From NCBI GenBank assembly GCA_030390025.1, contig CM059428.1, positions 168,578,001 to 168,642,000 of the forward strand: 64,000 bases of DNA, written 5' to 3'. A program made the translations under genes and the position numbers. The stretch comes from Squalus acanthias (lineage: Eukaryota). Below the pieces are notes generated by a model. That model made no database searches and was not told the origin of the DNA. It was given only the letters and a program-made list of their open reading frames with translations. This document shows, piece by piece, positions 1-62,712 of the stretch (the stretch's first letter is position 1; every line of letters begins with the position of its first letter).

Positions 1-512
1 TATACTTGCCATAGAGGGAGTGCAACGAAGGTTCACGAGATTGATTCCTGGGATGGCGGGACTGTCGTATGAGAAGAGATTGAGTAAACTAGGCCTGTAT
101 TCTTTTGAATTCAGAAGAATGAGTGGGGATCTCATTGAAGCATACAAAATTATTACAGGGCTTGATAGGGTGGATGCTGGGAGAATGTTTCCCTTGGCTG
201 GGGAGTCTAGAACCAGGGGCCACAGCCTCAGGATAAAGGGTAGACCATTCAGGACTGAGATGAGAAGAAATTTCTTCACACAGAGGGTGGTGAATCTTTG
301 GAATTCTCTACCCCAGAGGGCTGTGGAGGCTCAGTCATTGGGTATATTAAAAACAGAAGTCGATAGATTTCTGACAAGTAAAGGCATCAAGGGATATGGC
401 GATCGGGCCGGTGAATGGAGTTGAGGCAGAAGATCAGCCATGATCTCACTGAATGGCGGAGCAGGTTTGAGGGGCCAAATGGCCTACTCCTGCTCCTATT
501 TCTTATGTTCTT
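1..512 (+). mobile_element. CR1 LINE 3' end (ORF2 C-terminus and 3'UTR), cut by window edge
   Basis: ORF 20..424 with CR1 motifs (LSYEKRL...RTRGHSL...RNFFTQRVVNLWNSLP). Tail ggcctactcctgctcctatttcttatgttctt. Confidence 0.92.
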
Positions 513-690
513 CTGTCTTCTTTCATTAGCATGTCCAATATGATGTCGAACGTTTTTCAGGTATTCTTGGGGCACAGGACATAGCCCTGCAAAATCGGTC
601 ATTTTCCCCCCTGGAAAACAGCCACAATGATTACCAATTTCTACCCCCAAATTTCAGATGCTACTAATGAGCAGAGCTCAGATCCAAGTA

Positions 691-1054
691 CAGGAAACTC
701 TTTATTAACCGGCACCGACGGGACCGGCGTGGTGCCAGTTAATCAAAAAGTCCGGATAACGGAGAGTTATATCTCCCAACGTACGAGAGCCCCGTACACA
801 TTGACATGCGCCTGCATTCGGAGCTCCGTCTCCCCGGGGACCGCCAGCTGACCATCTGTCGTGTCCGCTGCCTACCCGGGCTGCACATTCCCCTCCCAAT
901 CTACACGCTCCGATACAAGGCAAACGCCTCGGGGTTTTTTTTTAAGTTAATTTTAAACGAGAGATGAAGGAAAACCCCGGTTACCTACTCAAGAATTTTG
1001 CCGGTTAAGAGAGATTTCCGGATATTTGGGTGCCGGTTAATAAAGAGTTTCCTG
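691..1054. mobile_element. Tc1/mariner-type (Tigger/pogo-like) MITE
   Basis: Perfect 26-bp TIR caggaaactctttattaaccggcacc. TA on both flanks (689-690, 1055-1056). Confidence 0.88.
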
Positions 1055-2429
1055 TATTTGTGGCCTGGTCCCTAGCCTCCCAGCAAAACTGATGGCTGGG
1101 AATGGAGACAAAGGCCAACCTTCCTACAAGGCTGACCATTCATACCCTTTAGCCTTGAGGGATGTCTGTGCCTCTCTGAAGTTCCCACTGCATCAATCGG
1201 CCCTCGACCCAGTTTGGCACAACAGGCAACAATCAGGAGAACTCACTTCAGTTAAATTTACAGCCTGGCATGATGGAATCACCAGACTAGGCTAGCTCAT
1301 GCACAAGCTATTCCACTAGTTGGCTAAAAAATTTCACCTCTCCCAACATGACCATCTCTAGATGCCACATTATCTCCAGAACCCTGCAATACTCTGCAGA
1401 CTTCAGCATGAGCCAGTTCTCCTGGAGTTTTTCCTTCACTCCCCAATGGTTTCCTGCATCTCCACCCTGTGCACAATTCTCATGACAATGACCAAAGATA
1501 GGACAGAAAACCTGAGAAAAGCCCAAAATCTAACCACTTATTAAGGGAAGGTGACTAATGAATGGCACGGAGACAGATCCTAAATCCTATCAGATGCAAC
1601 AAAATGCACGAAGACCAACTCAAGATTATATATGACACATAGTGCACCCATGTTCAAGCACCACAAATTGCATCCCTCCATATCAGACAATGCTGGATAG
1701 GTTGTGGCCAGAAGAGCACACCCCTCCACATATTGTTGCCATGCCTCTGCATTCAGCCATTCTGGATAGCAGTTTGGGAGACCACAAGGACCATGGGTGG
1801 CCTTGCAATTCCAGAGGAATTCCACAGGCTTACCCACTCCCTCCCACAATCAACAGGCTAACACAACTCTCACTACTAGCTGCAAGAAGATGATACTCGA
1901 CTCTAAAGCTAAGAGCAGCCCTCCCACCAATAACATGTGGCTTAAGCATAGTTGGAACAGATCTCAATTAGAACGAGTGTTGTTCAGCTCCTGCTTGGAA
2001 TGATAGAAATAGAAAGCAGTCTGGGGTCCATTCTTGAAGGGTCATTCAGCATAAACTGCATTCTCCCAGCAGAGCAGCCCACCCACTAGCCACATGGCCA
2101 AGGAATATAACCAACAGAATCACTAGTAGGCATAGGATCCACCCTTCCACCCACACCAGACCTAATTGATCCCCAATACCAAGATCAAACAAGTTGCCTC
2201 AACTACTGATATACACTGCACCCAACACAAGCAGTCTTGCCAAGACTCCTGCAAGCACTTTGCAATTAACTTGTACAATGTTTTCATAAAATATATATTT
2301 GAATGTAGATTTTAGGGAATTAAATTAAGAGGGAATCTCTGAGCAAATTCAGTTTTGAAAGCACAGCAAAAACACACTGAAATTGGCACAAAGAAACACA
2401 ACAGCAACAATAACACAAATATGAATCTG

Positions 2430-2990
2430 CTTTAAGAGATAGGAGGGATGGGAGAGTGGGTGTGTACCTGGATGCATTTGAGAACCTTAGCGAGGAATGA
2501 GCAATTGGAAAGGTAAATGGGTGCAGGGTGGGCTTTCAAAGAAAGGATGATAACAGCAATTTTGACGGGTAGAGTGACAATGTCAGCGCTGTTAATGTCA
2601 GCAAGCATCGGGCCAAAAAGAGGCAGTTCAGTAATTAGCAGCTGAGTCATGAGTGAGTCAATAGAGCAGATGGTGGGCCTCATGGGGAACATGAGTCTGG
2701 TCAGAGCTGGAAAGGTGATAGGAAGCTACAAAATATTGTGGTGCAGAGGTAGGGCAGAAGGGGTTGAAAGCAGGGAAAGTAATGGAATAAAAAGAGGATG
2801 AAACAGCTGAACAGATAGTCTCAATTTTGGAGACAAAGAAATACCTGAGCTTCACACATCAGTGGTGGGGATGAAAATGGCCAAGTGGAAGACCAAAGCA
2901 GGAAGCCTGAAATAAAGAGGTTTGTCCTTGCCCTCCATGACGATTCTAGAGTAGCACGAGGATTTGATAGCCGTGAGGAAGAAGCCACTA
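2430..2990 (-). mobile_element. Decayed L2-type LINE internal fragment
   Basis: Degenerate RT-proximal motif (PIYLSNCSFLAKVLK resembling YRPISNLPFLSKVLE). Boundaries approximate. Confidence 0.5.
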
Positions 2991-3079
2991 AGCATTAAAA
3001 ATATTAGTGGAGAGGATGAAAAAGTCTATGTGATGAAAATCAAGAGATTGAATAATGGTGAATAATGATTGAGTCCTAC

Positions 3080-3346
3080 CCTTCACTTTTAGGCAAGCAA
3101 TGGTCTGCTGATCTCCAGAATCACACATATATGTTCCAGTATCTTCTATTTTCAGGTCGTGGATTAACAATTCAGTGATGGCACCTTTCTGCTTCATTTC
3201 ATGCTTGTCACTTGGGTGAAGTACCACAGATCCCTTTTTCCATTCTACTGGAGCACCAGGTTTGGTAATCTCACAGCGCAGTGTGGCAGTACCATTCTCT
3301 TCAGCTTCTTCGTTCTGAAGCTCTTGTTTGAAAAGCACAGGCAACG
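3080..3346 (-). CDS. OBSCN: Obscurin exon U, Ig domain (267 nt; ALPVLFKQEL...ACLKVK)
   Basis: Acceptor gtccctcag|CG, donor AAGG|gtagga. Confidence 0.92.
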
Positions 3347-5599: not shown

Positions 5600-6501
5600 C
5601 TAAAACAATATGAATATAGGTTAACTTTATAATGTCTCCAACAGCTTCCCCTCAACCAGCTGGAATTAGGTACTATTTTTGGTTCACCCATGAAGCATGT
5701 GAGCCGTTCAATAAGGTAACCAATATTTTGTCCTTCTGAAGAATGCATTTGATAAACAGGGAAAATAATCGTACTTGACTAAGTCAACTTTAATAGGCTA
5801 AATATTTCTACAATCAAGGAAGTGGAAATGGCCTTTGCGTTTTAAAGAATTGCTTTGTCCTTAGTTCATATATATGATGTACACAAGAACGTAGTGAAGA
5901 CATTGCTTTATATTGCAAGTGCAGTTTCTGCAGGAAAGAATGGACAAATGACATCAATTATAAACAACCTAGAAATTATGGAAGTTTATTCATTGGCTCT
6001 AATAGCAGATCCTTGAGGTTATTCCCTCCAGTGACCATTCTGCAGCAAAAAGTAAACAGAATCGGAGATAAGTATGGCACTGGATAAATAACTCACTTAA
6101 AAACAAGAAACAGAGCAGCCACAAACTGAAGCTGTTTAGGTTGGAAAAAGGGTACCCTAAGTCTCATTCTTGGGACCTTGCTATTTGTAATACTGTATAT
6201 ATGAATGAATTAGATGAGGATATTATAAGTAAAATATACAAATTTGCAAATGGCAAAAAAAGAGGAGATATAAGCAAATACTGAGAACCAATACTACTAG
6301 GTTCAGGATTTAGGGACTATATTTTCTACCCACTGACTATGAATGGACAAAATCTAGGGTTGCATTTTAATTTGGGCCACCCGGCATAAAAGGGGGCTGT
6401 AGCAGCTTGAAAATGGCTTACGCAAGCGCTCCGGCCGCCACCAACTTCAAGAGGGTATACCGTTAGGTGACGGAAGCCTACTTGTTTCGGACGATAGGCC
6501 C

Positions 6502-9072
6502 TTTTTAAAAAATTTGTTCATGGGATGTGGGCGTCGCTGGCAAGGCTGGCATTTATTGCCCATCCTTAGTTGCCCTCGAGAAGGTGGTGGTGAGCCGCCT
6601 TCTTGAACCGCTGCAGTCCATGTGGTGAGGGTGCTCCCACAGTGCTGTTAGGGAGGGAGTTCCAGGATTTTGATCCAGCGACGATGAAGGAACGGCGATA
6701 TACTTCCAAGTCAGGATGGCTTGTGACTTGGAGGGGGAACTTGGAGGTGGTGGTGTTCCCATGCGCCTGCTGCCCTTGTCCTTCTAGGTGGTAGAGGTCA
6801 GTGGTTTGGGAGGTGCTGCCGAAGAAGCCTTGGCGAGTTGTTGCAGTGCATCTTGTAGATGGTACACACCGCAGCCACGGTACGCCAGTGGTGGAAGGAG
6901 TGAATGTTTAAGGTGGTGGATGGGGTGCCAATCAAGCAGGCTTCTTTGTCTTGGATGGTGTCAAGCTTCGAGTGTTGTTGGAGCTGCACTCATCCAGGCA
7001 AGTAGAGAATATTCCATCACACTCCTGACTTGTGCCTTGTAGATGGTGGAAAGGCTTTGGGGAGTCAGGAGGTGAGACACTCGCCGCAGAATACCCAGCC
7101 TCTGATCTGCTCTTGTTGGCGCAGTATTTATGTGGCTGGTCCAGTTAAGTTTCTAGTTAATGGTGCCCCCCAGGATATTGATGGTGGGGGATTCGGCGAT
7201 AGTAATGCCGTTGAATGTCAAGGGGCGGTGGTTAGACGCTCGCTTGTTGGAGATAGTCATTGCCTGGCACTTGTATGGCACGAATGTTACCAGCCACTTA
7301 TCAGCCCAAGCCTGAATGTCGTCCAGGTCTTGCTGCATGCGGGCATGGACTGCTTCATTATCTGAGGAGTAGCGAATGGCACTGAACACTGTGCAGCCAT
7401 CAGCGAAATCCCCACTTCTGACCTTATGATGGAGGGAAGGTCATTGATGGAGCAGCTGAAGATGGTTGGGCCTAGGACACTGCCCCGAGGAACTCCTGCA
7501 GCGATGTCCTGGGGCTGTGATGATTGACCTCCAACCACCACAACCATCTTCCTTTGTGCTAGGTATGACTCCAGCCAGTGGAGAGTTTCCCCCCCCAATT
7601 CCAATTGACTTCAGTTTTACTAGGGCTCCTTGATGCCACACTCTGTCAAATGCTGCCTTGATGTCAAGGGCAGTCACTCTCACCTCACCTCTGGAATTCA
7701 GCTCTTTTGTTCATGTTTGGACTAAGGCTGTAATGAGGCCTGGAGCTGAGTGGTCCGAGCGGAACCCAAACTGCGCATCAGTGAGCAGGTTATTGGTGAG
7801 CACAGTCAACGACACCTTCCATCACTTTGCTGATGACTGAGAGTAGACTGATGGGGCGGTAATTGGCCGGATTGGATTTGTCCTGCTTTTTGTGGACAGG
7901 ACATACCTGGGCAGTTTTCCACATGGTCGGATAGATGCCAGTGTTATAGCTGTACCGGAACAGCTCGGCTAGAGGCGTGGCTAGTTCTGGAGCACAAGTC
8001 TTCAGCACGACAGCCGGTCTTTGCTATATCCAGTGCGCTCAGCCGTTTCTTGATATCATGTGGAGTGAATCGAATTGGCTGAAGACTGGCTTCTGTGGTG
8101 GTGGGGACCTCAGGAGGAGGCCGATATGGATCATCCACTCGGCACTTCTGGCTGAAGATGGTTGCAAACGCTTCAGCTTTGTCTTTTGCACTCACGTGCT
8201 GGGCTCTACCATCATTGAGGATGGGGATATTCATGGAGCCTCCTCCTCCCGTTAGTTGTTTAATGGTCCACCACCATTCACGACTGGATGTGGCAGGACT
8301 GCGGAGCTTCGATCTGATCCGTTGATTGTGGGATTGCTTAGCGCTGTCTATAGCATGCTGCTTCCGCTTTTTAGCATGCATGTAGTCCTGTGTTACAGCT
8401 TCCCCAGTTTGGCACCTCATTTTTAGGTACGCTTGGTCTGGCTCCTGGCATGCTCTTCTACACTCCTTATTGAACCAGGGTTGGTCCCCTGGCTTGATGG
8501 TAATGGTAGAGTGAGGGATATGCCGGGCCACGAGGTTACAGATTGTGGTGGAATACAATTCTGCTGCCCACAGCGCCTCATGGATGTCCAGTTTTGAGCT
8601 GCTAGATCTGTTCTGAATCGATCCCATTTAGCACGGTGGTAGTGCCACACAACACGACGGAGGGTGTACTCAGTGTGAAGACGGGACTTCGTCTCCACAA
8701 TGACTGTGCGGTGGTCACTGCTACCAATGCTGTCATGGACAGATGCATCTGCGATGGGTAGATTGGTGAGGACGAAGTCAAGTAGGGTTTTACCTCGTGT
8801 TGGTTCTCTCACCACCTGTCGCAGGCCCAGACTGGCAGCTATGTCCTTCAGAACTCGGCCAGCTCGGTCAGTAGTGGTGCTACCGAGCCACTCTTGGTGA
8901 TGGACACTGAAGTTCTCCACCCAGAATACATTCTGTGCCCTTACTACTCGAAGTGCTTCTTCCAAGTGGTGTTCAACATGGAGGAGTACTGACTCAGCTG
9001 AGGGAGGGCGGTAGGTGGTAATCAGTAGGAGGTTTCCTTGCCCATGCTTGATCTGAAGCCATGAGACTTCAT
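6502..9072 (-). mobile_element. CR1-group non-LTR retrotransposon, decayed ORF2 (APE endonuclease + RT) and 3' tail
   Basis: Fragmented ORFs: PTRGKTLLDFVLTN and SDH (APE), NPANYRPISLLSVISKVME, ALDIKAAFDRVWH, GVPRGSVLGP (RT). Frameshifts and small deletions. A/T-rich tail near 6502-6516. Confidence 0.9.
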
Positions 9073-9377
9073 GCTAGGCCATTTCAGAGGGCAGTTAAGA
9101 GTCAACCACATTGCTGTGGGTCTGGAGTCACATATAGGCCAGACCAAGTAAGGACGGCAGATTTCCTTCCCTAAAGGACGTTAGTGAACCAGATGGGTTT
9201 TTACGACAATCCAATAGTTTCATGGTCACCATTACTGATACTAGCTTTTTATTCCAGATTTATTTAATTAACTGAATTTAAATTCCCCAGCTGCCGTGGT
9301 GGGATTTGAACCCATGTCTCCGGATCGTTAGTCCAGGATTACTCGTCCAGTAACATAACCACTATGCTACTGTTCCC
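9073..9377 (-). mobile_element. tRNA-derived SINE head/body fused to the 5' end of the adjacent LINE
   Basis: Minus strand begins GGGAACAGTAGCATAGTGG (A box 9359-9369), then GGTTCAAATCC (B box 9302-9312). Runs directly into LINE APE coding sequence. Confidence 0.82.
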
Positions 9378-9734
9378 GTATGCAAATAGGGTCTTATGAC
9401 ATTCATAGGGCCTCGACTGCCATTTTAAAACAGAACTGGGTGAAGCATACGCTGCCCAGTTGCATCTGGCGGTCCATCTAAAGAGGAGCACAACGGCATC
9501 TTTTTATTTATTTTTATGGGGGTTAGGAGGAGCAGTGGTGCACAAAAATAACTTGGGTTGCTGCCACACTGTGTCCCCCACCTCCAATCGAACATTATTT
9601 TGGTCGGGCCCACCTCCAGGGCACCCAATTTTGTGCTGGCCTGGACCCAGTGGGCTGCCCCCATGGATCTATCAAAAAGGAATGGGCTTGTTAAGCTCAG
9701 TCTTTCCCCTTTTCCTAAATTTTTTATGGTCTTA

Positions 9735-15514: not shown

Positions 15515-16949
15515 ATGTGGCAAATGTGACACCATTGTTCAAGAAAGGGTGTAATCCTAGTAACTACAGGCCAGTCAGTTTAACATCAGTGGTGGGTAAA
15601 GTTTTAGAAACAATAATCAAGGAAAAAATTAATGGGCACTTGGAGAGGTTTAAGCTAATTAAGGAGAGCCAACACGGATTTGTAAAAGGCAGATCGTGTA
15701 TGACTAATTTAATTGAATTTTTTGAGGAATGTAACAGGGATTATTGATGAAGGGAATGCAATGGATGTTGTCTACATGGATTTTAGGAAGGCGTTTGACA
15801 AAGTACCACATAGAAGGCTGGTTAACAAAATTGAGGCTCATGGAATAGGTGGGTCAGTGGCAGCTTGGATAAGGAATTGGCTTAAGGACAGAAAACAGCG
15901 AGTTGTGGTAAATGGCTGCTTTTCAGACTGGAGGATGGTAGACAGTGGTGTTCCCCAAGGGTCAGTGCTGGGGCCACTGCTTTTTTTGATATATAAATGA
16001 CCTGGATATTGGAATACAAAGTAGAATTTCTAAATTTGCTGATGACACCAAACTTGGGGGTGTGGCAAACAGTGAGGATGATACCAATCGACTGCAACAG
16101 GACATAGAAAGGCTAGCAGAATGGGCAGACAAGTGGCAGATGGAATTTAATACAGAGAAGTGTGAGGTGATGCATTTTGGCAGAAGGTACAGGGAGAGGC
16201 AATATACACTTAATGGCACAGTTTTAAAGAGTGTGCAGGGACAGAGGGACCTGGGAGTTAATGTGCATAGGTCCCTGAAGGTGGCAGGACATATTGAGAG
16301 AGTGGTTAGCAAAGCATATGGGATCTTGGGCTTCATAATTAGAGGTATTGAGTACAAAAGTAGAGAAGTTATGCTGAACCTTTATAAAGCGCTGGTTAGG
16401 CCACAGCTGGAGTATTGCATCCAGTTCTGGTCACCACACTTTAGGAAGGATGTGAAGGCCCTTGAGAGGGTGCAGAGGAAATTTACCAGAATGGTTCAGG
16501 GGATGGGGGATCTTAGCTACAAGGACAGGTTGGAGAAGCTGGATTTGTTTTCATTAGAGCAAAGGAGGTTGAGGGGTGATTTGATAGAGGTGTACAAGAT
16601 TATGACGGGTTTGGATAGGCTGGACGGGGAAAGGCTGTTCCCACTAGTTGATGGTACAAGGACTAGGGGTCACAGATTTAAGGTTTTGGGTAAGAGATAC
16701 AGGGGGGATGTGAGGAAAAACTTTTTTATGCAGCGAGTGGTGAGGACCTGGAACTCGCTGCCGACGTAAGTGGTGGAAGCGGCGACACTCAAATGTTTTC
16801 AAGGGGAGACTGGATAGGCACTTGAGGGAAATAAACTTGCAGGGCTATGGGGTTAGAGCGGGGGAATGGGACTGACTGGATTGCTCTACAGAGAGCCGGC
16901 ACGGACTCGATGGGCCGAATGGCCGCCTTCTGTGCCGTTATGACTCTAT
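15515..16949 (+). mobile_element. 5'-truncated CR1 LINE (RT and C-terminus, frameshifted)
   Basis: NYRPVSLTSVVGK, MDFRKAFDKVPH, GVPQGSVLGP, FADD, then ORF 16062..16769. Tail gggccgaatggcc...tatgactctat. Confidence 0.94.
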
Positions 16950-17245: not shown

Positions 17246-18413
17246 TATGTCCTTTGTTATCTTAAACCACACACATCCATTTCACAAAGACAAGGAAGGT
17301 TTGATTAGACCAAAGGAGATGAGAATTAAAGTTAGATACAAGTAAACAAACTGACTCAGAGGAGAGAGAAAGTAAAGAAGTAGATTACTCACTGAACACA
17401 AATGTTTGCCCATGTACTCAGGAACAGTCAATAAATGTTAATATGATGTATTAAGAATTATGTATGTATTATTTAGTTTAAGGTAAATTCATAACCTAAT
17501 GTCAAATCTTTAAAATTTATAATCTGATATTTCCTTGTTAAACCTAGTGTTAAAGAGTTCACACTCTTCATTTTATACCGTACCACTTTACTGTTCTCTC
17601 CTCTACATACAAAATGTTCCACTCAATATAACCATGAGTTTAAGCACTACAGTGAAGACTAGTCTTGTGGCTGTATGAGTGAATCAATTCATTCAGGGCA
17701 AGAGAAGCAATATTAGACAATAAAACTAAAGGCGTATAAAAAAAACTTTAGATGACTGAAATTGCATAATGGGTCCATTAGTTTCAGAACTTATCAAGTA
17801 TAATACTTTGTTCCCGTAAACTTTTTAGGAAAGAGCTTCCTTCTGTTTTTATAAACACACAATACAATGACTTCATCTGCATTGGGAAATCTTTGCGTCA
17901 CTCACGCAGCAAAGCAAAAAAGATGTTCAGCTTTTCTAGAATCAGCTGAACAGAATTCGATCCCAAAAACATGGATGATTAATTCCCCCTGCACTAAAGT
18001 TAGTCAAGGCTGTAGATTTAACTATACCAGTCAAACAAAATTATGATGATGCACATGGATTAATAGCAAATGTCAGCTATTAACCAACGGCAAAATTAGA
18101 AGGTGATCAATGCATATCTTTAAACATTGATTAATAGCAATACATCTTTTCCTCTCTTTATATTTATATTGTAGAACATTTTGAAATAATAGAGTTTAAA
18201 CTGAATAATGTATAGGGGCCAATAAAGCAGTTCTTTGTGGTAGAAATTCTTTTATAAAGATTTGAGCTCCTGTACTCATTATATGATGCTACTGCTGGAT
18301 CAAGAAAAACAGCTGTTATTACAACAACAAAAAAATCATAAAATCAGAATTTACACTATAAATAGTAACGGTAAACACAAAAAAACAAATTACGTGATAG
18401 AAATGATCCAGAC

Positions 18414-18680
18414 CTGCGACTGTCAGGCGAGCTCTTGATTGTGTATTACCAATGTCACACGTGTAATGGTCACTATCGCTCTTCTCTAGCTGATTAATTG
18501 TAAGACTTAAGGAAGTGCCATCCTGGTTCATTTCATATTTCTTGTTTGGCTTGATGTCTGCCATCCCTTTTCTCCAGATAGGCTTGTCTGCTGGCTGTTC
18601 CGTTTCACATTCAAAAACTGCAGTTCCTTTCTCTTCAGTTTTTATGTCATGTAATTCCTTGGTAAATTGGTTTACTACTT
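18414..18680 (-). CDS. OBSCN: Obscurin exon R, Ig domain (267 nt; EVVNQFTKEL...ARLTVA)
   Basis: Acceptor ttctttccag|AA, donor GCAG|gtctgg (weak). Length and phase fit. Confidence 0.9.
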
Positions 18681-19628
18681 CTGGAAAGAATGTAAAACAT
18701 GCAAACAATATATTTACAAATAAATTAACTTTATGTTGCATACCCAAAAAACTATATGTTGTATACTTAACTGATGTATATACATTGTGATTCATTGGTC
18801 CCGCACTCCTAGCGGGGAGCGGTAATGACAGGGAGCGCATTTCAGGAAATTGCAGGAGTGTAGCAAGTGATTTTCTTCAGATGCACTTCCCACTTTCAGT
18901 AGAGGATCACAAAATCACCCTTACAGCGCAGCTTCCTGACTCCAATCATTTATAAAGTATCCTAAACCAATCTTTTAAGCTCCATGATTTGTTTTCTTTC
19001 TCCCTCCTTTAGGTTTTCCATGAACGATCCAAGTGGACAGGCAAGCAACCTACTCCCAAGTCCTCTACCAAAACTGCTCTATAACCAGTCGATAGAAAAT
19101 AGGTGTGAGCAATGGGAGTTGTTTTTCTGTCCAATTTTCTCTGATAGCAGGGAAGTATCTCACCTGCTGTTTTAAACTTTACCTCAGTGGTCCAGTTCAA
19201 ATTTTACATTCTCTATCTAGATATTCAGAGGTGCAAATGACCATCCCAGTACAGTTAATGCTGGGCTGCTATACCACCAATTATTATTAATGCATACCTT
19301 TCAGATATCAAAAACAGACAAAGTTGTACCACAAAGTATAGTTCAAAAACACAATTATAATACTTAGGCGCTTAAGCATTCTACTTAAATTAATGCACTA
19401 TTAATTTGTTAGCTATCGCCTAACTACTTAACTCTAGATTTAAATACAGTGCATAAGTTATTAAACAGTACATTAGCAGTGGATGGTGATTCAGGATGTT
19501 GATTGATGACTTGCGATGTCCTATCCACACACAGGCAATAGCTAAATTAATATGATGTAAAGTATGTGCAGATCTTGCTATTGACAATAGTGGAGAGGAA
19601 AAAGAGAATACAAAATGTATGTTTTTAC

Positions 19629-23347: not shown

Positions 23348-24095
23348 CAACAACAACAACAACTTGTATTTATATAGCACCTTTAACGTAGTAAAACGTC
23401 CCAAGGTGCTGCATAGGAATATTTTAAGACAAAAAATTTGACACCGATCCACATAAGGATAAATTAGGGCAGGAGACCAAAAGCTTGGTCAAAGAGGTAG
23501 GTTTTAAGGAGTGTCTTAAAGGAGGAAAGAGAGGAAGCGAGGTGGACAGGTTTAGGGAGGGAATTCCAGAGCTTAGGGCCTAGGCAACAGAAGGCACGGC
23601 CACCAAAAGTTGAGCGATTATAATCAGGGATGCTCAAGAGGGCAGAATTAGAGGAGCGCAGATATCTCAGGGGGAAAGGGGGGGGGGGGGTGGGTTGTGG
23701 GGCTGAAGGAAATTACAGAGATAGAAGGGGCGAGGCCATGGAGGGATTTGAAAACAAGAATGAGAATTTTGAAATCGAGGCACTGCTTAACCGGGAGCCA
23801 ATGTAGGTCAGCGGGCACAGGGGTGATGGGCGAACGGGACTTGGTGCGAGTTTGGACACGGGCAGCCGAGTTTTGGATGACCTCAAGTTTACGGAAGGTG
23901 GAATGTGGGAGGCCAGCCAGGAGTGCATTGGAATAGTCAAGTCTAGAGGTAACAAAGGCATGGATGAGGGTTTCAGCAGCAGATGAGCTGAGGCAAGGGC
24001 GAAGACGGGCGATGTTACGGAGGTGGAAGTAGGCGGTCTTTATTATGCTGCGGATATGTGGTCGGAAACTCATTTCAGGGTCAAATATGACACCA
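23348..24095 (-). mobile_element. L2 LINE 3' fragment
   Basis: YFHLRNIARLRPCLSSSAAETLIHAFVTSRLDYSNALL...LHWLPV. Tail gctatataaatacaag(ttg)n. Confidence 0.92.
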
Positions 24096-24293
24096 ACCCC
24101 TTTCTCATGACCATTGTACATGGGGAATAGGTGTTGCCTGGACGCTGTCCTCAGAAGAATCAGCCTCTTAAAGTCTCCCAATATTACAGCCTTATTACTT
24201 CTTCAAACCTCTCTGAATGATCTACAAATCTCTTCCTCTATTTGGTTTTCACTATTTATCAGTCTACAATGGACACCCAATAGTGTTGCATAC

Positions 24294-34209: not shown

Positions 34210-35404
34210 CTGTGTGCAAAACATTTAGTTATGCTGTATATCAGCAGCATGAAAATAGGTAAAGTGTATATTTTTGAATCAGATTTTGCACGAATTTCTT
34301 CCTTTATGCTTTAATTTTTATATGCTATCTTCAGTTCTATGTTCCAGCAACAGGGAGCATACTTGCTCTGGGATAATCTACTAACTTCTATTGCTCCCAA
34401 CTAAAAACATATTGGAGGATGTGATGGTTTACGTCACCTCAGCAAAGAAAAGTGGCTGTATCGAGTGACCATCCAAGGAAATGCATTGGTCACATTTAAG
34501 GATACAAAGAACAGCATACAGAGATGATGCGCAGCAGATAACATATAAGTGAAACAAGTTAACAAATAATCCACTATTATTCACTTCCATCTGCACTTGT
34601 TAAATTATGTTTAAAAACATCAGATCTTCTCCATATACACCTTTTTAGTCTGATAGTATAATCTGGGAATTTACAGCAAATTGCAAGATCCTCACAGTAA
34701 ACAGAGAACAACCCTGCTTGTTTACCTACTAGAGTGTGACTGGAAGCTGTGGTGCGCAATGCTAAGTTTATCAACATCTGCAGCACATTTGTTAAAAATA
34801 GAATAATTCAACAATGCTGGATTTCAAAAGAACAGTGCAGTTAAAATGACAGATGCTCATTTCAAATGAGACATTGGAGTTAAAAACTACTTCTACTGTT
34901 CGTTCAACTCTGTCACACTGCCTGGCTTAGTAACTGATGGCTGCAGTTATAGACTCAGATCGTTTGCTGCACAGTGCGAGTCGTAGCTGCTACCACCCAA
35001 GTTAAACTACAGGCTGAAATCTTAGTCTAACAGTCAGGAAAGAACTCAGCACGTGGTCCACTCCTGGTCGGTAAAATTTTAATGTTTTGAAAGCAGGGAT
35101 AGGAGTATCCGCTTTCTCAAAACATTAAAATAAAAACTTAGCCCAAGTTTATAAAATGCCAGGCAATCCAATGGACCACCTGTGCACTATTTAATCCTGG
35201 ACTGACATTGCACTGGAGTTATATTCAATGTGGTAGCAAACCCAATAAATGCGAGATGACCTCCCTGCTTCACAGTGACACAAAAATGACATTAACTGCA
35301 GTGAGAGTCTGGAAACACTCGCAGATCTCCAGAAGGCAATAAAAATAACCTTCAATTTTAAATATTTCCTATCAGGTAATAGTCTTCATATGAAAGTTTT
35401 CTTA

Positions 35405-35820
35405 AACTCTCTGGAGTTTAGAAGAATGAGAGGTGATCTCATTGAAACATACAAGATTCTGGAGGGGATTGACAGGGTAGAGGCTGAGAGGTTGCTTCCC
35501 CTGGCTGGAGTGTCTAGAACTAGGGAGCATAGTCTCAGGATAAGGGGTCGGCCATTTAAGAACGAGATGAGGAGGAATTTCTTCACTCAGAGGGTTGTGA
35601 ATCTTTGGAATTCTCTGTCCAGAGGGCTGTGAATGCTGAGTCTTTGAGTATATTCAAGGCTGAGATAGATAGATTTTTGGACTCTAGGGGAATCAAGGGA
35701 TATGGAGATCGGGCGGGAAAGTGGAGTTGAGGTCGATGATCAGCCATGATCTTATTGAATGGCGGAGCAGGCTCGAGGGGCCGTATAGCCTACTCCTGCT
35801 CCTATTTCTTATGTTCTAAT
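35405..35820 (+). mobile_element. CR1 3' fragment
   Basis: SLEFRRMRGDLIETYKIL...RNFFTQRVVNLWNSL plus 3'UTR and tail. Confidence 0.92.
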
Positions 35821-36209
35821 GTTTACCCTTTAAAAATAGTTCCCCTTTTCCTTTAATCACACTATTCTCAGTACAGTACTACATCTTTGCAGGATCACTG
35901 CAAGCATCTAGTGGCAGACGAGGAGTACTGCAATAGTTCATGTACTTCTTTTTCTGGCCTCCAGGATCTTAAAGTTAAATTAATCTTCTGCTTCAGAAAT
36001 GAAAATCATACTTTTTTGGGCCTCAGATCTATACATCAGATTGACTTAAATTTTTTTAACAACTTTTTTCTCATCTAAATGTTCTAAACCAGAAACAATA
36101 TTATTGGAAGCATTCATTTGGATAATAGCATATCCCGATTCTAACAAGATTCACATTAAAATAATTTCTGAAACCATGTTAAATCATAATAAAAAAAAAA
36201 AGATTCTAC

Positions 36210-46329: not shown

Positions 46330-47803
46330 AAGGATCAGTGCTTGGGCCGCAGCTATTCATAACCTATATCAATGATTTGGATGAGGGGACCAAATGTAAT
46401 ATATCCAAGTTTGCTGATGATACAAAGCTAGGTGGGAATGTAAGTTGTGAGGAGGAAGCAAAGAGACTTCAAGGGGATATAGACAGGCTAAGTGAGTGGG
46501 CAAGAACATGGCAAATGGAATATAATGTGGAGAAATGTGAAGTTATCCACTTTGGTAGGAAAAATAGAAAAGTAGAGTATTTTTTAAATGGTGAGAAATT
46601 GGGAAATGTTGGTGTTCAGAGGGACCTGGGTGTCCTTGTACACGAATCATTGAAAGTTAACATGCAGGTGCAGCAAGCAATTAGGAAAGAAAATGGTATG
46701 TTAGCCTTTATTACAAGAGGATTTAAGTATATAAGAGTAAAGACGTCTTGCTGCAATTATATAGGGCCCTGGTGAGACCACACCTGGAGTATTGTGTACC
46801 GTTTTGGTCTCCTTACCTAAGGAAGGATATACTTGCCATAGAGGGAGTGCAACGAAAAAGACTTGCATTTATATAGCGCTTTTCATGACCACCGGACGTC
46901 TCAAAGCACTTTACAGCCAATGAAGTACTTTTGGAGTGTAGTCACTGTTGTAATGTGGGATACGCGGCAGCCAATTTGCGCACAGCAAGCTCCCACAAAC
47001 AGCAATGTGATAATGACCAGATAATCTGTTTTTGTTATGTTGATTGAGGGATAAATATTGGCCAGGACACCGGGGATAACTCCCCTGCTCTTCTTCGAAA
47101 TAGTGCCATGGGATCTTTTACGTCCACCTGAGAGAGCAGACGGGGCCTCGGTTTACGTCTCATCCGAAAGACAGCACCTCCGACAGTGCAGCACTCCCTC
47201 AGCACTGCACTGGAGTGTCAGCCTAGATTTATATGCTCAAGTCCCTGGAGTGGGACTTGAACCCACAACCTACTGACTCAGAGGCGAGTGTGCTGCCCAC
47301 TGAGCCACAGCTGACAAAGGTTCACCAGACTGATTCCTGGGATGGGGGGATTGTCCTACGAGGACAGATTGAGTAGACTAGGCCTATATTCTCTAGAGTT
47401 TAAAAGAATGAGGGGTGATCTCAGTGAAACATACAACATTTTTACAGGGATTGACAGAGTAGATGCAGGGAGGATGTTTCCCCTGGCTGAGGAGTCTAGA
47501 ACCAGAGGTCACAGTCTCAGAATAAGGGGTAGGCCATTTAGGACTGAGATGAGGAGAAATTTCTTCACTCAGAGGGTGGTGAATCTTTGGAATTCTCTAC
47601 CCCAGAGGGGTTGTAGAGGCTCAGTCATTGAGTATATTCAAGAGAGAGATCGATAGATTTTTGGATATTAAGGGAATCAAGAGATATGGGGATAGTTCAG
47701 GAAAGTGGAGTTGAGGTACAAGATCAGCCATGATCTTATTGAATGGCGGAGCAGGCTCGATGGGCCGAATGGCCTGCTCCTATTTCTTATGTTCTTATGT
47801 TCT
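46330..47803 (+). mobile_element. 5'-truncated CR1 LINE interrupted by a SINE
   Basis: LGPQLFITYINDLD...KFADDTKL (46338..46775), resuming after the SINE with LSYEDRL...NLWNSLP and the tail. Possible tctcct duplication (46324-46329, 47801-47806). Confidence 0.93.
46857..47316 (-). mobile_element. Near full-length SacSINE1-like Deu-domain SINE
   Basis: tRNA-like head TGGCTCAGTGG...GGTTCAAGTCC, Deu core GATCCCATGGCACTATTT...GATTATCTGGTCATTATCACATTGCTG, L2-like tail GCGCTATATAAATGCAAGTCTTTTT. Confidence 0.9.
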
Positions 47804-52247: not shown

Positions 52248-52449
52248 CTGTAACAAAATTTCAATACAAATTAATATTACTGTAATTAAAAATTAACCAT
52301 GTGTTTTTTTTTTAATCAACTGGTTCTTATTCAAGATATACTGGTTCAGATGTTTTGGGACGCGCGGGGACTAAGGGTTGATTCCCTGCACTTGAATGAT
52401 GAGTCCCGAGGCTCCACAGATATTGGGCCTCGAACCTCATTATAATGGA

Positions 52450-53052
52450 TTTGAGTATAAGAGTAAAGACATCTTACTGCAATTATATAGGGCCCTGGTG
52501 AGACCACACCTGGAGTATTGTGTACAGTTTTGGTCTCCTTACCTAAAGGAGGATATACTTGCCCTAGAGGGAGTGCAACGAAGTTTCACTAGACTGGGAT
52601 GGGGGGATTGTCCTATGAGGAGAGATTGAGTAGACTAGGCCTATATTCTCTGGAGTTTAGAAGAATGAGAGGTGATCTCATTGAAACATTCAAAATTCTT
52701 ACAGGGCTTGACAGGGTAGATGCAGGGAGGATGCTTCCCCTGGCTGGGGAATCAAGCAGGGGTCACAGACTCAGAATAAGGGGTAGGCCATTTAGCCCTG
52801 AGAGGAGGAGAAATTTCTTCACTCAAGAGGGTGGTGAATCTTTGGAATTCTCTACCCCAGAGGGCTGTAGAGTCTCTGTCATTGAGTATATTCAAGACAG
52901 ATTGATAGATTTTTGGATATTAAGGGAATAAAGGGATATGGTGATAGTGCTGGAAAGTGAAGTTGAGGTAGAAGATCAGCCATGATCTTACTGAATGGCG
53001 GAGCAGGCTCGAGGGGCCGAATGGCCTACTCCTGCTCCTATTTCTTACGTTC
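52450..53052 (+). mobile_element. 5'-truncated CR1 LINE with 10-bp target duplication
   Basis: LYRALVRPHLEYCVQFWSP...; ttataatgga at 52440-52449 and 53053-53062. Confidence 0.92.
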
Positions 53053-53062
53053 TTATAATGGA

Positions 53063-53556
53063 GCCAGGCACAGCCTCAAAGCATGCCGGCGAAGAGCAGT
53101 GGAACGTCTGGCCGCTGGTAACTGCAAGATTGGGGCCGGAAGATCAGGGATCGAGGCCGAGAGCGGCAGCAATGGGGAGAGGGGTGTGGGGTAGGTGCAG
53201 CGGCAATCGGTATCTTTAATGTGAGGTCAGGAGGAGCAGACTTGCTCCTCCCAGGTCCACATTCAGGTAAGTTACTTACTTTCTTAGTTGGCAGGCTTTG
53301 TTACCCTGAATGTAGCCAGCGATGGCACTGGCTTCCTTAGGGCAAACAAATCCAGAGGTGAACTCAAACAGGCATTAGGCCCCTTATTTGTATATGCAAA
53401 GTGATTAACACCCGCTTCTGGCCTGGGTAAAGGATACCTCTTGTTTGTCCTTATCCAATATGGCGGGTGGCGCATTTCCAATCAAAAATGTGCGCATGCT
53501 TCCTGCTTGCGATATTGGGGCCTTAGTAGTCCGATTAGCGCCTGAATAACTAGTCC
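53063..53556. mobile_element. Non-autonomous DNA element copy (host of the CR1; left part about 52355-52440)
   Basis: Inverted homology to 62378-62710 and 22660-22810 (ccaatatggc, gccctgagg/ccttagggc, ctacattcagg, ggagca..tgctcctcc). Confidence 0.6.
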
Positions 53557-62377: not shown

Positions 62378-62712
62378 GGGGCTAGAAACTAGGCTGCGTA
62401 GTGCTCATTTTTCAGGTGCTAGGCTGAGGCCCCTAACTTTTGGCTGAACGTGAACTAACTGCCATATTGGGTATGGAAAAACAAGAAGCGTCCTTTGCCC
62501 GTGCCTGGAGCAGGCGTTAGGCCCTTTTCTAATGCAAATAAGGGACCTACCACCTGTTTGAGGTCCCCGCTCCAACATTGGTTTGCCCTGAGGCATCAAG
62601 CGCCATCACAGGCTACATTCAGGAAAAATTGCCCTACTGAACAGCAGCCAATCAAGAAGCTAAGCAACTTAGCTGCATGTGGATCCAGAAGGAGCACAAG
62701 TGCTCCTCCCAA
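62378..62712. mobile_element. Non-autonomous DNA element end (ggggctagaaa...)
   Basis: Shared motifs with 53063-53556, 30247-30600 and 27340-27690. Confidence 0.55.

Follow-up and report, generated by a model that had tools for sequence, protein, structure and literature searches.

Positions 6502-9377 of the 64,000-nt stretch of dogfish (Squalus acanthias) DNA analysed here (the window) hold a single minus-strand insertion, a dead, internally deleted copy of a tRNA-headed elasmobranch CR1-Zenon LINE that is 95.3% identical to the majority sequence of its family. Read from 9377 to 6502, it consists of a tRNA-like head, an AT-rich spacer, a conserved body, APE-coding sequence, a broken RT frame, a 3' untranslated region and a tail. 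The tRNA-derived head (9295-9377) begins at the sharp 5' end of the family, position 9377, and carries the two boxes of a predicted type 2 Pol III promoter; the original prediction had placed an A and a B box in a SINE-like minus-strand head, and both were confirmed, the A box at 9369-9359 and the B box at 9313-9302. Behind the head lie the AT-rich spacer (9207-9294) and the body of the 5' region (9074-9206), which by eye is nearly invariant in five shark and ray consensuses. Head and body together span about 305 nt and pass, with neither tail nor spacer between, into APE-coding sequence from 9073.

The remnant of the single APE-RT frame (6566-9073) comprises the remaining part of the endonuclease region (8690-9073; Pfam PF14529) and a frameshifted RT region with the approximate limits 7177-7880, and it closes with a stop codon at 6568-6566. 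As had been claimed, this RT-bearing frame runs to a single A-rich 3' tail near 6502; in the window copy, however, it is broken by seven frame-shifting indels (near 8568, 8019, 7801, 7599, 7408, 6970 and 6738). The 3' untranslated region of 47 nt (6519-6565), with AATAAA at 6557-6552, is common to the short SINE-like forms of the family. The A-rich tail (6502-6518), whose last ~5 nt may be host T-tract, contains a T6 run (6512-6507) that is the sole run of four or more T on the sense strand of this copy. No further Zenon copies were found within the window.

The insertion interrupts an old interspersed repeat, the halves of which lie at 6300-6501 and 9378-9490. This host repeat shows 73-90% identity among 19 other copies; within the window, parts of it also occur at 53370-53400 and 62513-62545. 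In nine of the 19 other copies the left flank runs directly into the right flank (z of at least 4); a T-tract of about 5 nt separates the flanks at these empty sites, and at the window locus it merges with the tail of the element. Comparison with the host-repeat copies revealed no target-site duplication. Since the two halves of the host repeat join up once the insert is taken out, head and LINE represent one insertion, and the earlier claim that excision of 6502-9377 restores the repeat is thereby upheld. Elsewhere in the genome, two different Zenon copies (L080 and L096) seem to have entered a CR1 element at one identical point, which hints at target preference or at a duplicated locus.

Within the window, an open frame on the minus strand (18319-18876) contains an immunoglobulin I-set-like exon, which by resemblance we take to be of the obscurin/titin type. 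The Zenon copy has the same orientation and probably lies in or beside that gene. Fragments of canonical CR1 elements, 66-80% identical to our control CR1 family, are found at 5-509, 15667-16769, 35401-35823, 46332-47801 and 52447-53045, and an L2-like remnant at 23648-24202.

The direct join of head to endonuclease is real at this locus, but it is not the junction of the family. Compared with the family majority, the window copy lacks nt 312-692 (381 nt), lost at a microhomology of 2-4 nt (9070-9074); the missing segment comprises the A-rich linker, a basic N-terminal extension and the first part of the endonuclease. The join is thus an internal deletion of this one copy. A pattern search allowing up to two mismatches matched the exact junction once in the genome, and among 40 scored out of 1,062 candidates, only the self hit spans it, while 33 match the head side and six the endonuclease side. 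Second copies of the exact junction were therefore discarded as a candidate within this search.

Linkage of head and LINE, on the other hand, is the normal architecture of the family. The head end passes into the LINE linker in at least 1,057 exact matches in the genome, joins the tail within 25 nt in at least 219, and is matched at least 5,275 times in all, while the reversed-pattern control gave 0 in each case; because copies are ~5% diverged, these counts are lower bounds. Seen from the other side, 34 of 39 copies that include the endonuclease start are preceded by head sequence, in one case beyond an insertion of ~900 nt, and 17 reach the first 15 nt of the head; these copies derive from the best 40 of 2,169 matches and are biased to one young subfamily. 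The five headless copies end at different breakpoints with unrelated DNA beyond. Upstream of head position 1 the flanks are mutually unrelated, with a sharp 5' end and no conserved sequence further upstream, so that the head constitutes the 5' end of the family.

What appear as free SINEs are head-plus-3'-end deletion forms of the same LINE. When head-end matches were followed in the order of the genome, 16 of the first 30 continued into the endonuclease region, and the remaining 14 were fused to the 3' end of the same LINE at several different, partly recurrent breakpoints; an unrelated tail followed the head in none of the 30. The earlier statement that free shark SINEs with this head share the tail of the LINE was thus right, given these 14 copies and the head-to-tail matches counted above. 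Large internal deletions with head and tail intact were noted individually in seven loci (L073, L078, L101, L107, L332, L336 and L340). Internal deletions are common in the headed Zenon family, unlike the 5' truncation usual for CR1-group LINEs.

The family majority, derived from 37 aligned sequences that are 92-97% identical to it, measures 3,312 nt and contains a single stop-to-stop frame of 973 codons (nt 330 to 3251). Only 329 nt precede this frame and there is no ORF1. Natural copies yield both endonuclease (PF14529/PF03372) and RT (PF00078) domains, which share the one frame of the majority, and a poly-A tail is present. None of the copies examined has kept its frame intact, the longest natural frame being 509 codons. 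The protein is 27% identical to the canonical CR1 of the same genome and 46% to its best homologues.

Past purifying selection on the 973-codon APE-RT frame is shown by the variants among 66 copies, whose tree is ladder-like. Non-CpG variants that are shared between copies divide into 98 non-synonymous and 98 synonymous changes (plus 10 stops), as opposed to 1477 and 479 among singletons, and therefore the headed master copies coded for their own protein. Of the 57 coding columns that distinguish two subfamily majorities, 33 are synonymous. In the first 40 codons selection was not detected (12 to 5 vs 49 to 23), few sites being available there.

In the head, shared non-CpG variants affect none of the 21 A/B-box columns as compared with seven of the 82 columns of the tRNA part, and in five elasmobranch consensuses, judged by eye over the first ~400 nt, both boxes are kept while the sequence between them differs, one B box being degenerate. 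ARAGORN calls a tRNA at 9292-9365 of the window, the only call among ten loci tested; the Val isotype that it assigns is not reliable and was rejected. Against the Cys and Lys tRNA genes of the genome, the two isotypes retrieved, the family head scores z of 2.0-5.3. Within the head, family nt 28-69 form a tandem duplication of an anticodon-arm-like segment, which in one copy (L321) is extended to about seven 21-nt repeats. Genes for tRNA-Lys(TTT) lie in tandem arrays with a period of ~1.8 kb on four contigs (C29, C1484, C1516 and C2208; L152-L181).

The body matches none of the printed Deu, Meta and UCON3 alignments. It gives no folding signal (z -0.49), and a search of Rfam at E<=1 with four loci returned one weak antisense snoRNA match only, with no HDV-like ribozyme or known IRES; an IRES-like role of the body is for these reasons without support.

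The frame of 973 codons and the absence of ORF1 agree with the architecture that had been anticipated, but the expected in-frame start codon downstream of the head is missing. The first methionine of the frame is residue 287, beyond the endonuclease, and the nearest AUG, at nt 358, belongs to the +1 frame. Among 107 rows, a few of which repeat a copy, 37 have ATG at this codon and 57 have ATA. Copies with ATA have longer terminal branches and were still selected (24 to 49 vs 1148 to 428), so the out-of-frame AUG is not required, and we consider it improbable as an obligatory start for the dogfish genome, in which the older selected lineage has ATA. All five published elasmobranch consensuses nevertheless possess the out-of-frame AUG, which would allow a frameshift route. 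By eye, the low-complexity linker at family nt 329-359 measures 31 nt in the dogfish majority and in the consensuses of three other species, 27 nt in whale shark and 30 nt in the published dogfish entry; this near-constant length suggests that the distance from body to frame is constrained. A short segment of the body may be able to pair with the linker, again judged by eye only.

A further peculiarity concerns runs of T on the sense strand. Ahead of the tail, the family majority contains no T4 run and seven TTT runs in 3.3 kb, and T4 is likewise absent from both subfamily majorities. TTT occurs at 0.31 of the expectation from composition. In 51 related frames the ratio is 1.11±0.16, the lowest value being 0.59, and every one of these frames has T4 runs (3-58 each). 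These relatives are metagenome loci with frames of at least 700 codons and 30-46% identity, 29 of 80 loci with shorter frames being left out. Nearly all metagenome relatives have an early methionine. No pair of A and B boxes was detected in the upstream DNA examined for the 51, and relaxed ARAGORN matches on the metagenome loci were dismissed as scattered noise. For the canonical CR1 of the dogfish genome the TTT ratio is 1.02, with three T4 runs, and A-runs of four are not depleted in the Zenon family.

Taken alone, the absence of T4 is weak evidence, with p values of 0.02 under base shuffling, 0.12 under synonymous-codon permutation and 0.23 under a dinucleotide model. Within the frame, five TTT were observed against 11.3 expected (p 0.006), a depletion that weakens under the dinucleotide model (p 0.15) because TT itself is depleted. 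None of the single codon-choice tests reached significance (p 0.12, 0.35 and 0.08). Some avoidance of T4 appears to be general to LINEs, given that the CR1 control is also depleted with respect to codon permutation (3 vs 8.2, p 0.009). We regard the comparative controls as more telling than the shuffles. Runs of T4 or longer were present in 23 of the 114 tails read, vs 14 of 114 flanks.

The family has a published counterpart. The elasmobranch Zenon elements described by Stuart et al. (2026; PMC13343379) lack ORF1 and end in a poly-A tail; their consensuses are named SquAca_Zenon-1/2/3 and CarCar_, ScyCan_, RhiTyp_ and HypSab_Zenon-1. By eye, over the first ~400 nt, the consensuses of white shark, catshark, whale shark, dogfish and stingray from that work all start with the head, and SquAca_Zenon-1 equals our family majority almost letter for letter in this part (3,314 vs 3,312 nt in total). 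No such head is seen in the first ~400 nt of the Zenon consensuses from hagfish and coelacanth, although these entries may be incomplete or otherwise oriented. In the main text of the article the terms 'tRNA', 'start codon' and 'polymerase III' occur 0 times, and head, missing AUG and avoidance of T-runs go unremarked there. The architecture is real and conserved, but has apparently passed without remark within a catalogued family. The linkage counts, the survey of 30 copies and the five consensuses together support what the original prediction offered as its second reading, namely an autonomous family with a tRNA/SINE head whose SINE is an internal-deletion derivative.

As the full-length form combines tRNA-type boxes with a lack of T-runs that would stop Pol III, a coding element transcribed by this polymerase is likely. 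From the sequence features, we assign a probability of about 0.6 to the reading that the tRNA-derived head acts as the Pol III promoter of the whole 3.3-kb single-frame LINE, whose RNA would then be translated non-canonically. Pol III would start at +1, directed from the head, and might read through 3.3 kb owing to the lack of terminators, stopping in the tail or in the flank. Translation of the uncapped RNA would begin at a non-AUG codon that lies within the A-rich linker or shortly behind it, a step in which the conserved body could perhaps assist. The protein is then supposed to insert its RNA by target-primed reverse transcription at T-tracts, without duplication. Template jumps at microhomologies would generate internal deletions such as that of the window copy, and deletion forms that keep promoter and tail could ultimately amplify as SINEs. 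Non-AUG starts and ribozymes play a role in R2 elements. The broader proposition, that an autonomous LINE has been transcribed by Pol III from a captured tRNA promoter throughout shark and ray history, with uncapped, AUG-less translation and its own SINEs arising by deletion, strikes us as evenly balanced.

Consider, as an alternative, a head that was captured long ago from a SINE and now serves as an ordinary internal Pol II promoter or 5' untranslated region, with T-poverty being compositional and the frame reached by leaky scanning or by way of the out-of-frame AUG and a -1 shift. This is unlikely in our judgement, yet it draws on several of the observations above: T4 absence is not significant under the codon and dinucleotide nulls, the CR1 of the same genome also avoids T4, AATAAA and an A tail are present, and the out-of-frame AUG is found in five of five published consensuses. 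In addition, all studied LINEs are described as Pol II-transcribed or co-transcribed (PMC10886601). It does not sit well, however, with the retention of both boxes in sharks and rays alike despite a changing sequence between them, with a TTT depletion that is T-specific and far outside the 51 relatives, or with an older, successful lineage that does without the out-of-frame AUG.

Alternatively, the element could have no relevant promoter of its own and depend on read-through from the host, the tRNA-like head being a processing signal for an RNase P-type cut that yields the precise 5' end. HDV-like ribozymes provide precise 5' ends in R2 and L1Tc. Such a cut would be in line with the sharp 5' end, and the resulting uncapped RNA would account for the missing AUG as well; but the anticodon-arm segment is duplicated, most copies form no cloverleaf (one ARAGORN call in ten), and avoidance of T-runs is not predicted, which together make this explanation improbable. 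Least credible of all, and very improbable indeed, is a one-off template-switch chimera or a chance nesting of SINE and LINE at this locus. The singularity of the exact junction, spanned by the self match alone among the 40 scored of 1,062 candidates, would fit it. That junction is nonetheless a deletion within a normal head-LINE element, the flanking host repeat becomes continuous when the entire insert is removed, and linkage, far from being unique to this locus, recurs at least 1,057 times in the genome and in five species. At the family level the one-off reading is refuted, and it applies solely to the deletion junction of the window copy.

The working rule in the field holds that LINEs act through Pol II-made or co-transcribed mRNAs and that SINEs are short, non-coding Pol III parasites; likewise, Kojima (2024; PMC10886601) assigns non-LTR elements to Pol II and SINEs to Pol III, the latter polymerase being regarded as poorly processive when templates are long. 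If the Pol III reading is true, a LINE of several thousand copies would amount to a natural 3.3-kb Pol III mRNA, in which cap-independent, non-AUG translation could be tested directly. This would further imply a second route to SINE birth, through deletion from a headed LINE as opposed to capture of a head by a deleted LINE. Many shark 'SINE' annotations would then represent 5' ends or deletion products of the headed Zenon LINE.

Partial parallels exist in known systems. The lepidopteran Zenon (PMC6740152) similarly has a single frame and short, internally deleted derivatives with shared ends and variable breakpoints, but its SIDE Persaeus begins with the Zenon 5' untranslated region and is stated to be without tRNA homology or Pol III promoter. 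Bov-tA, CoeSINE4 and SINE2-1_EBu (Kojima, 2018, PMC5786205; Kojima, 2020, PMC7245038) also join a tRNA head to LINE-derived 5' and 3' parts; these are, however, non-coding, with the head added to a deleted RTE or Vingi LINE, whereas in the headed Zenon it is the autonomous element that bears the head, and its SINE is a product of deletion. The T+ SINEs B2, Dip and Ves (PMC8466645) share a Pol III head, AATAAA, a variable T-run and a short A tail, but are short and non-coding, and the T-run of the Zenon tail is not clearly above background. SacSINE1 (Deu) and HE1 (V-SINE) are likewise tRNA-derived elasmobranch SINEs with LINE-related tails (PMC5499810, PMC3747384), their described partners being instead L2/CR1-4_DR-like and HER1 LINEs.

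No description of a tRNA-headed autonomous LINE was found among the openly accessible papers that the search covered. With respect to the SINE2 class, the Zenon element shares the tRNA-derived head with A and B boxes, while only its short derivatives are short and non-coding.
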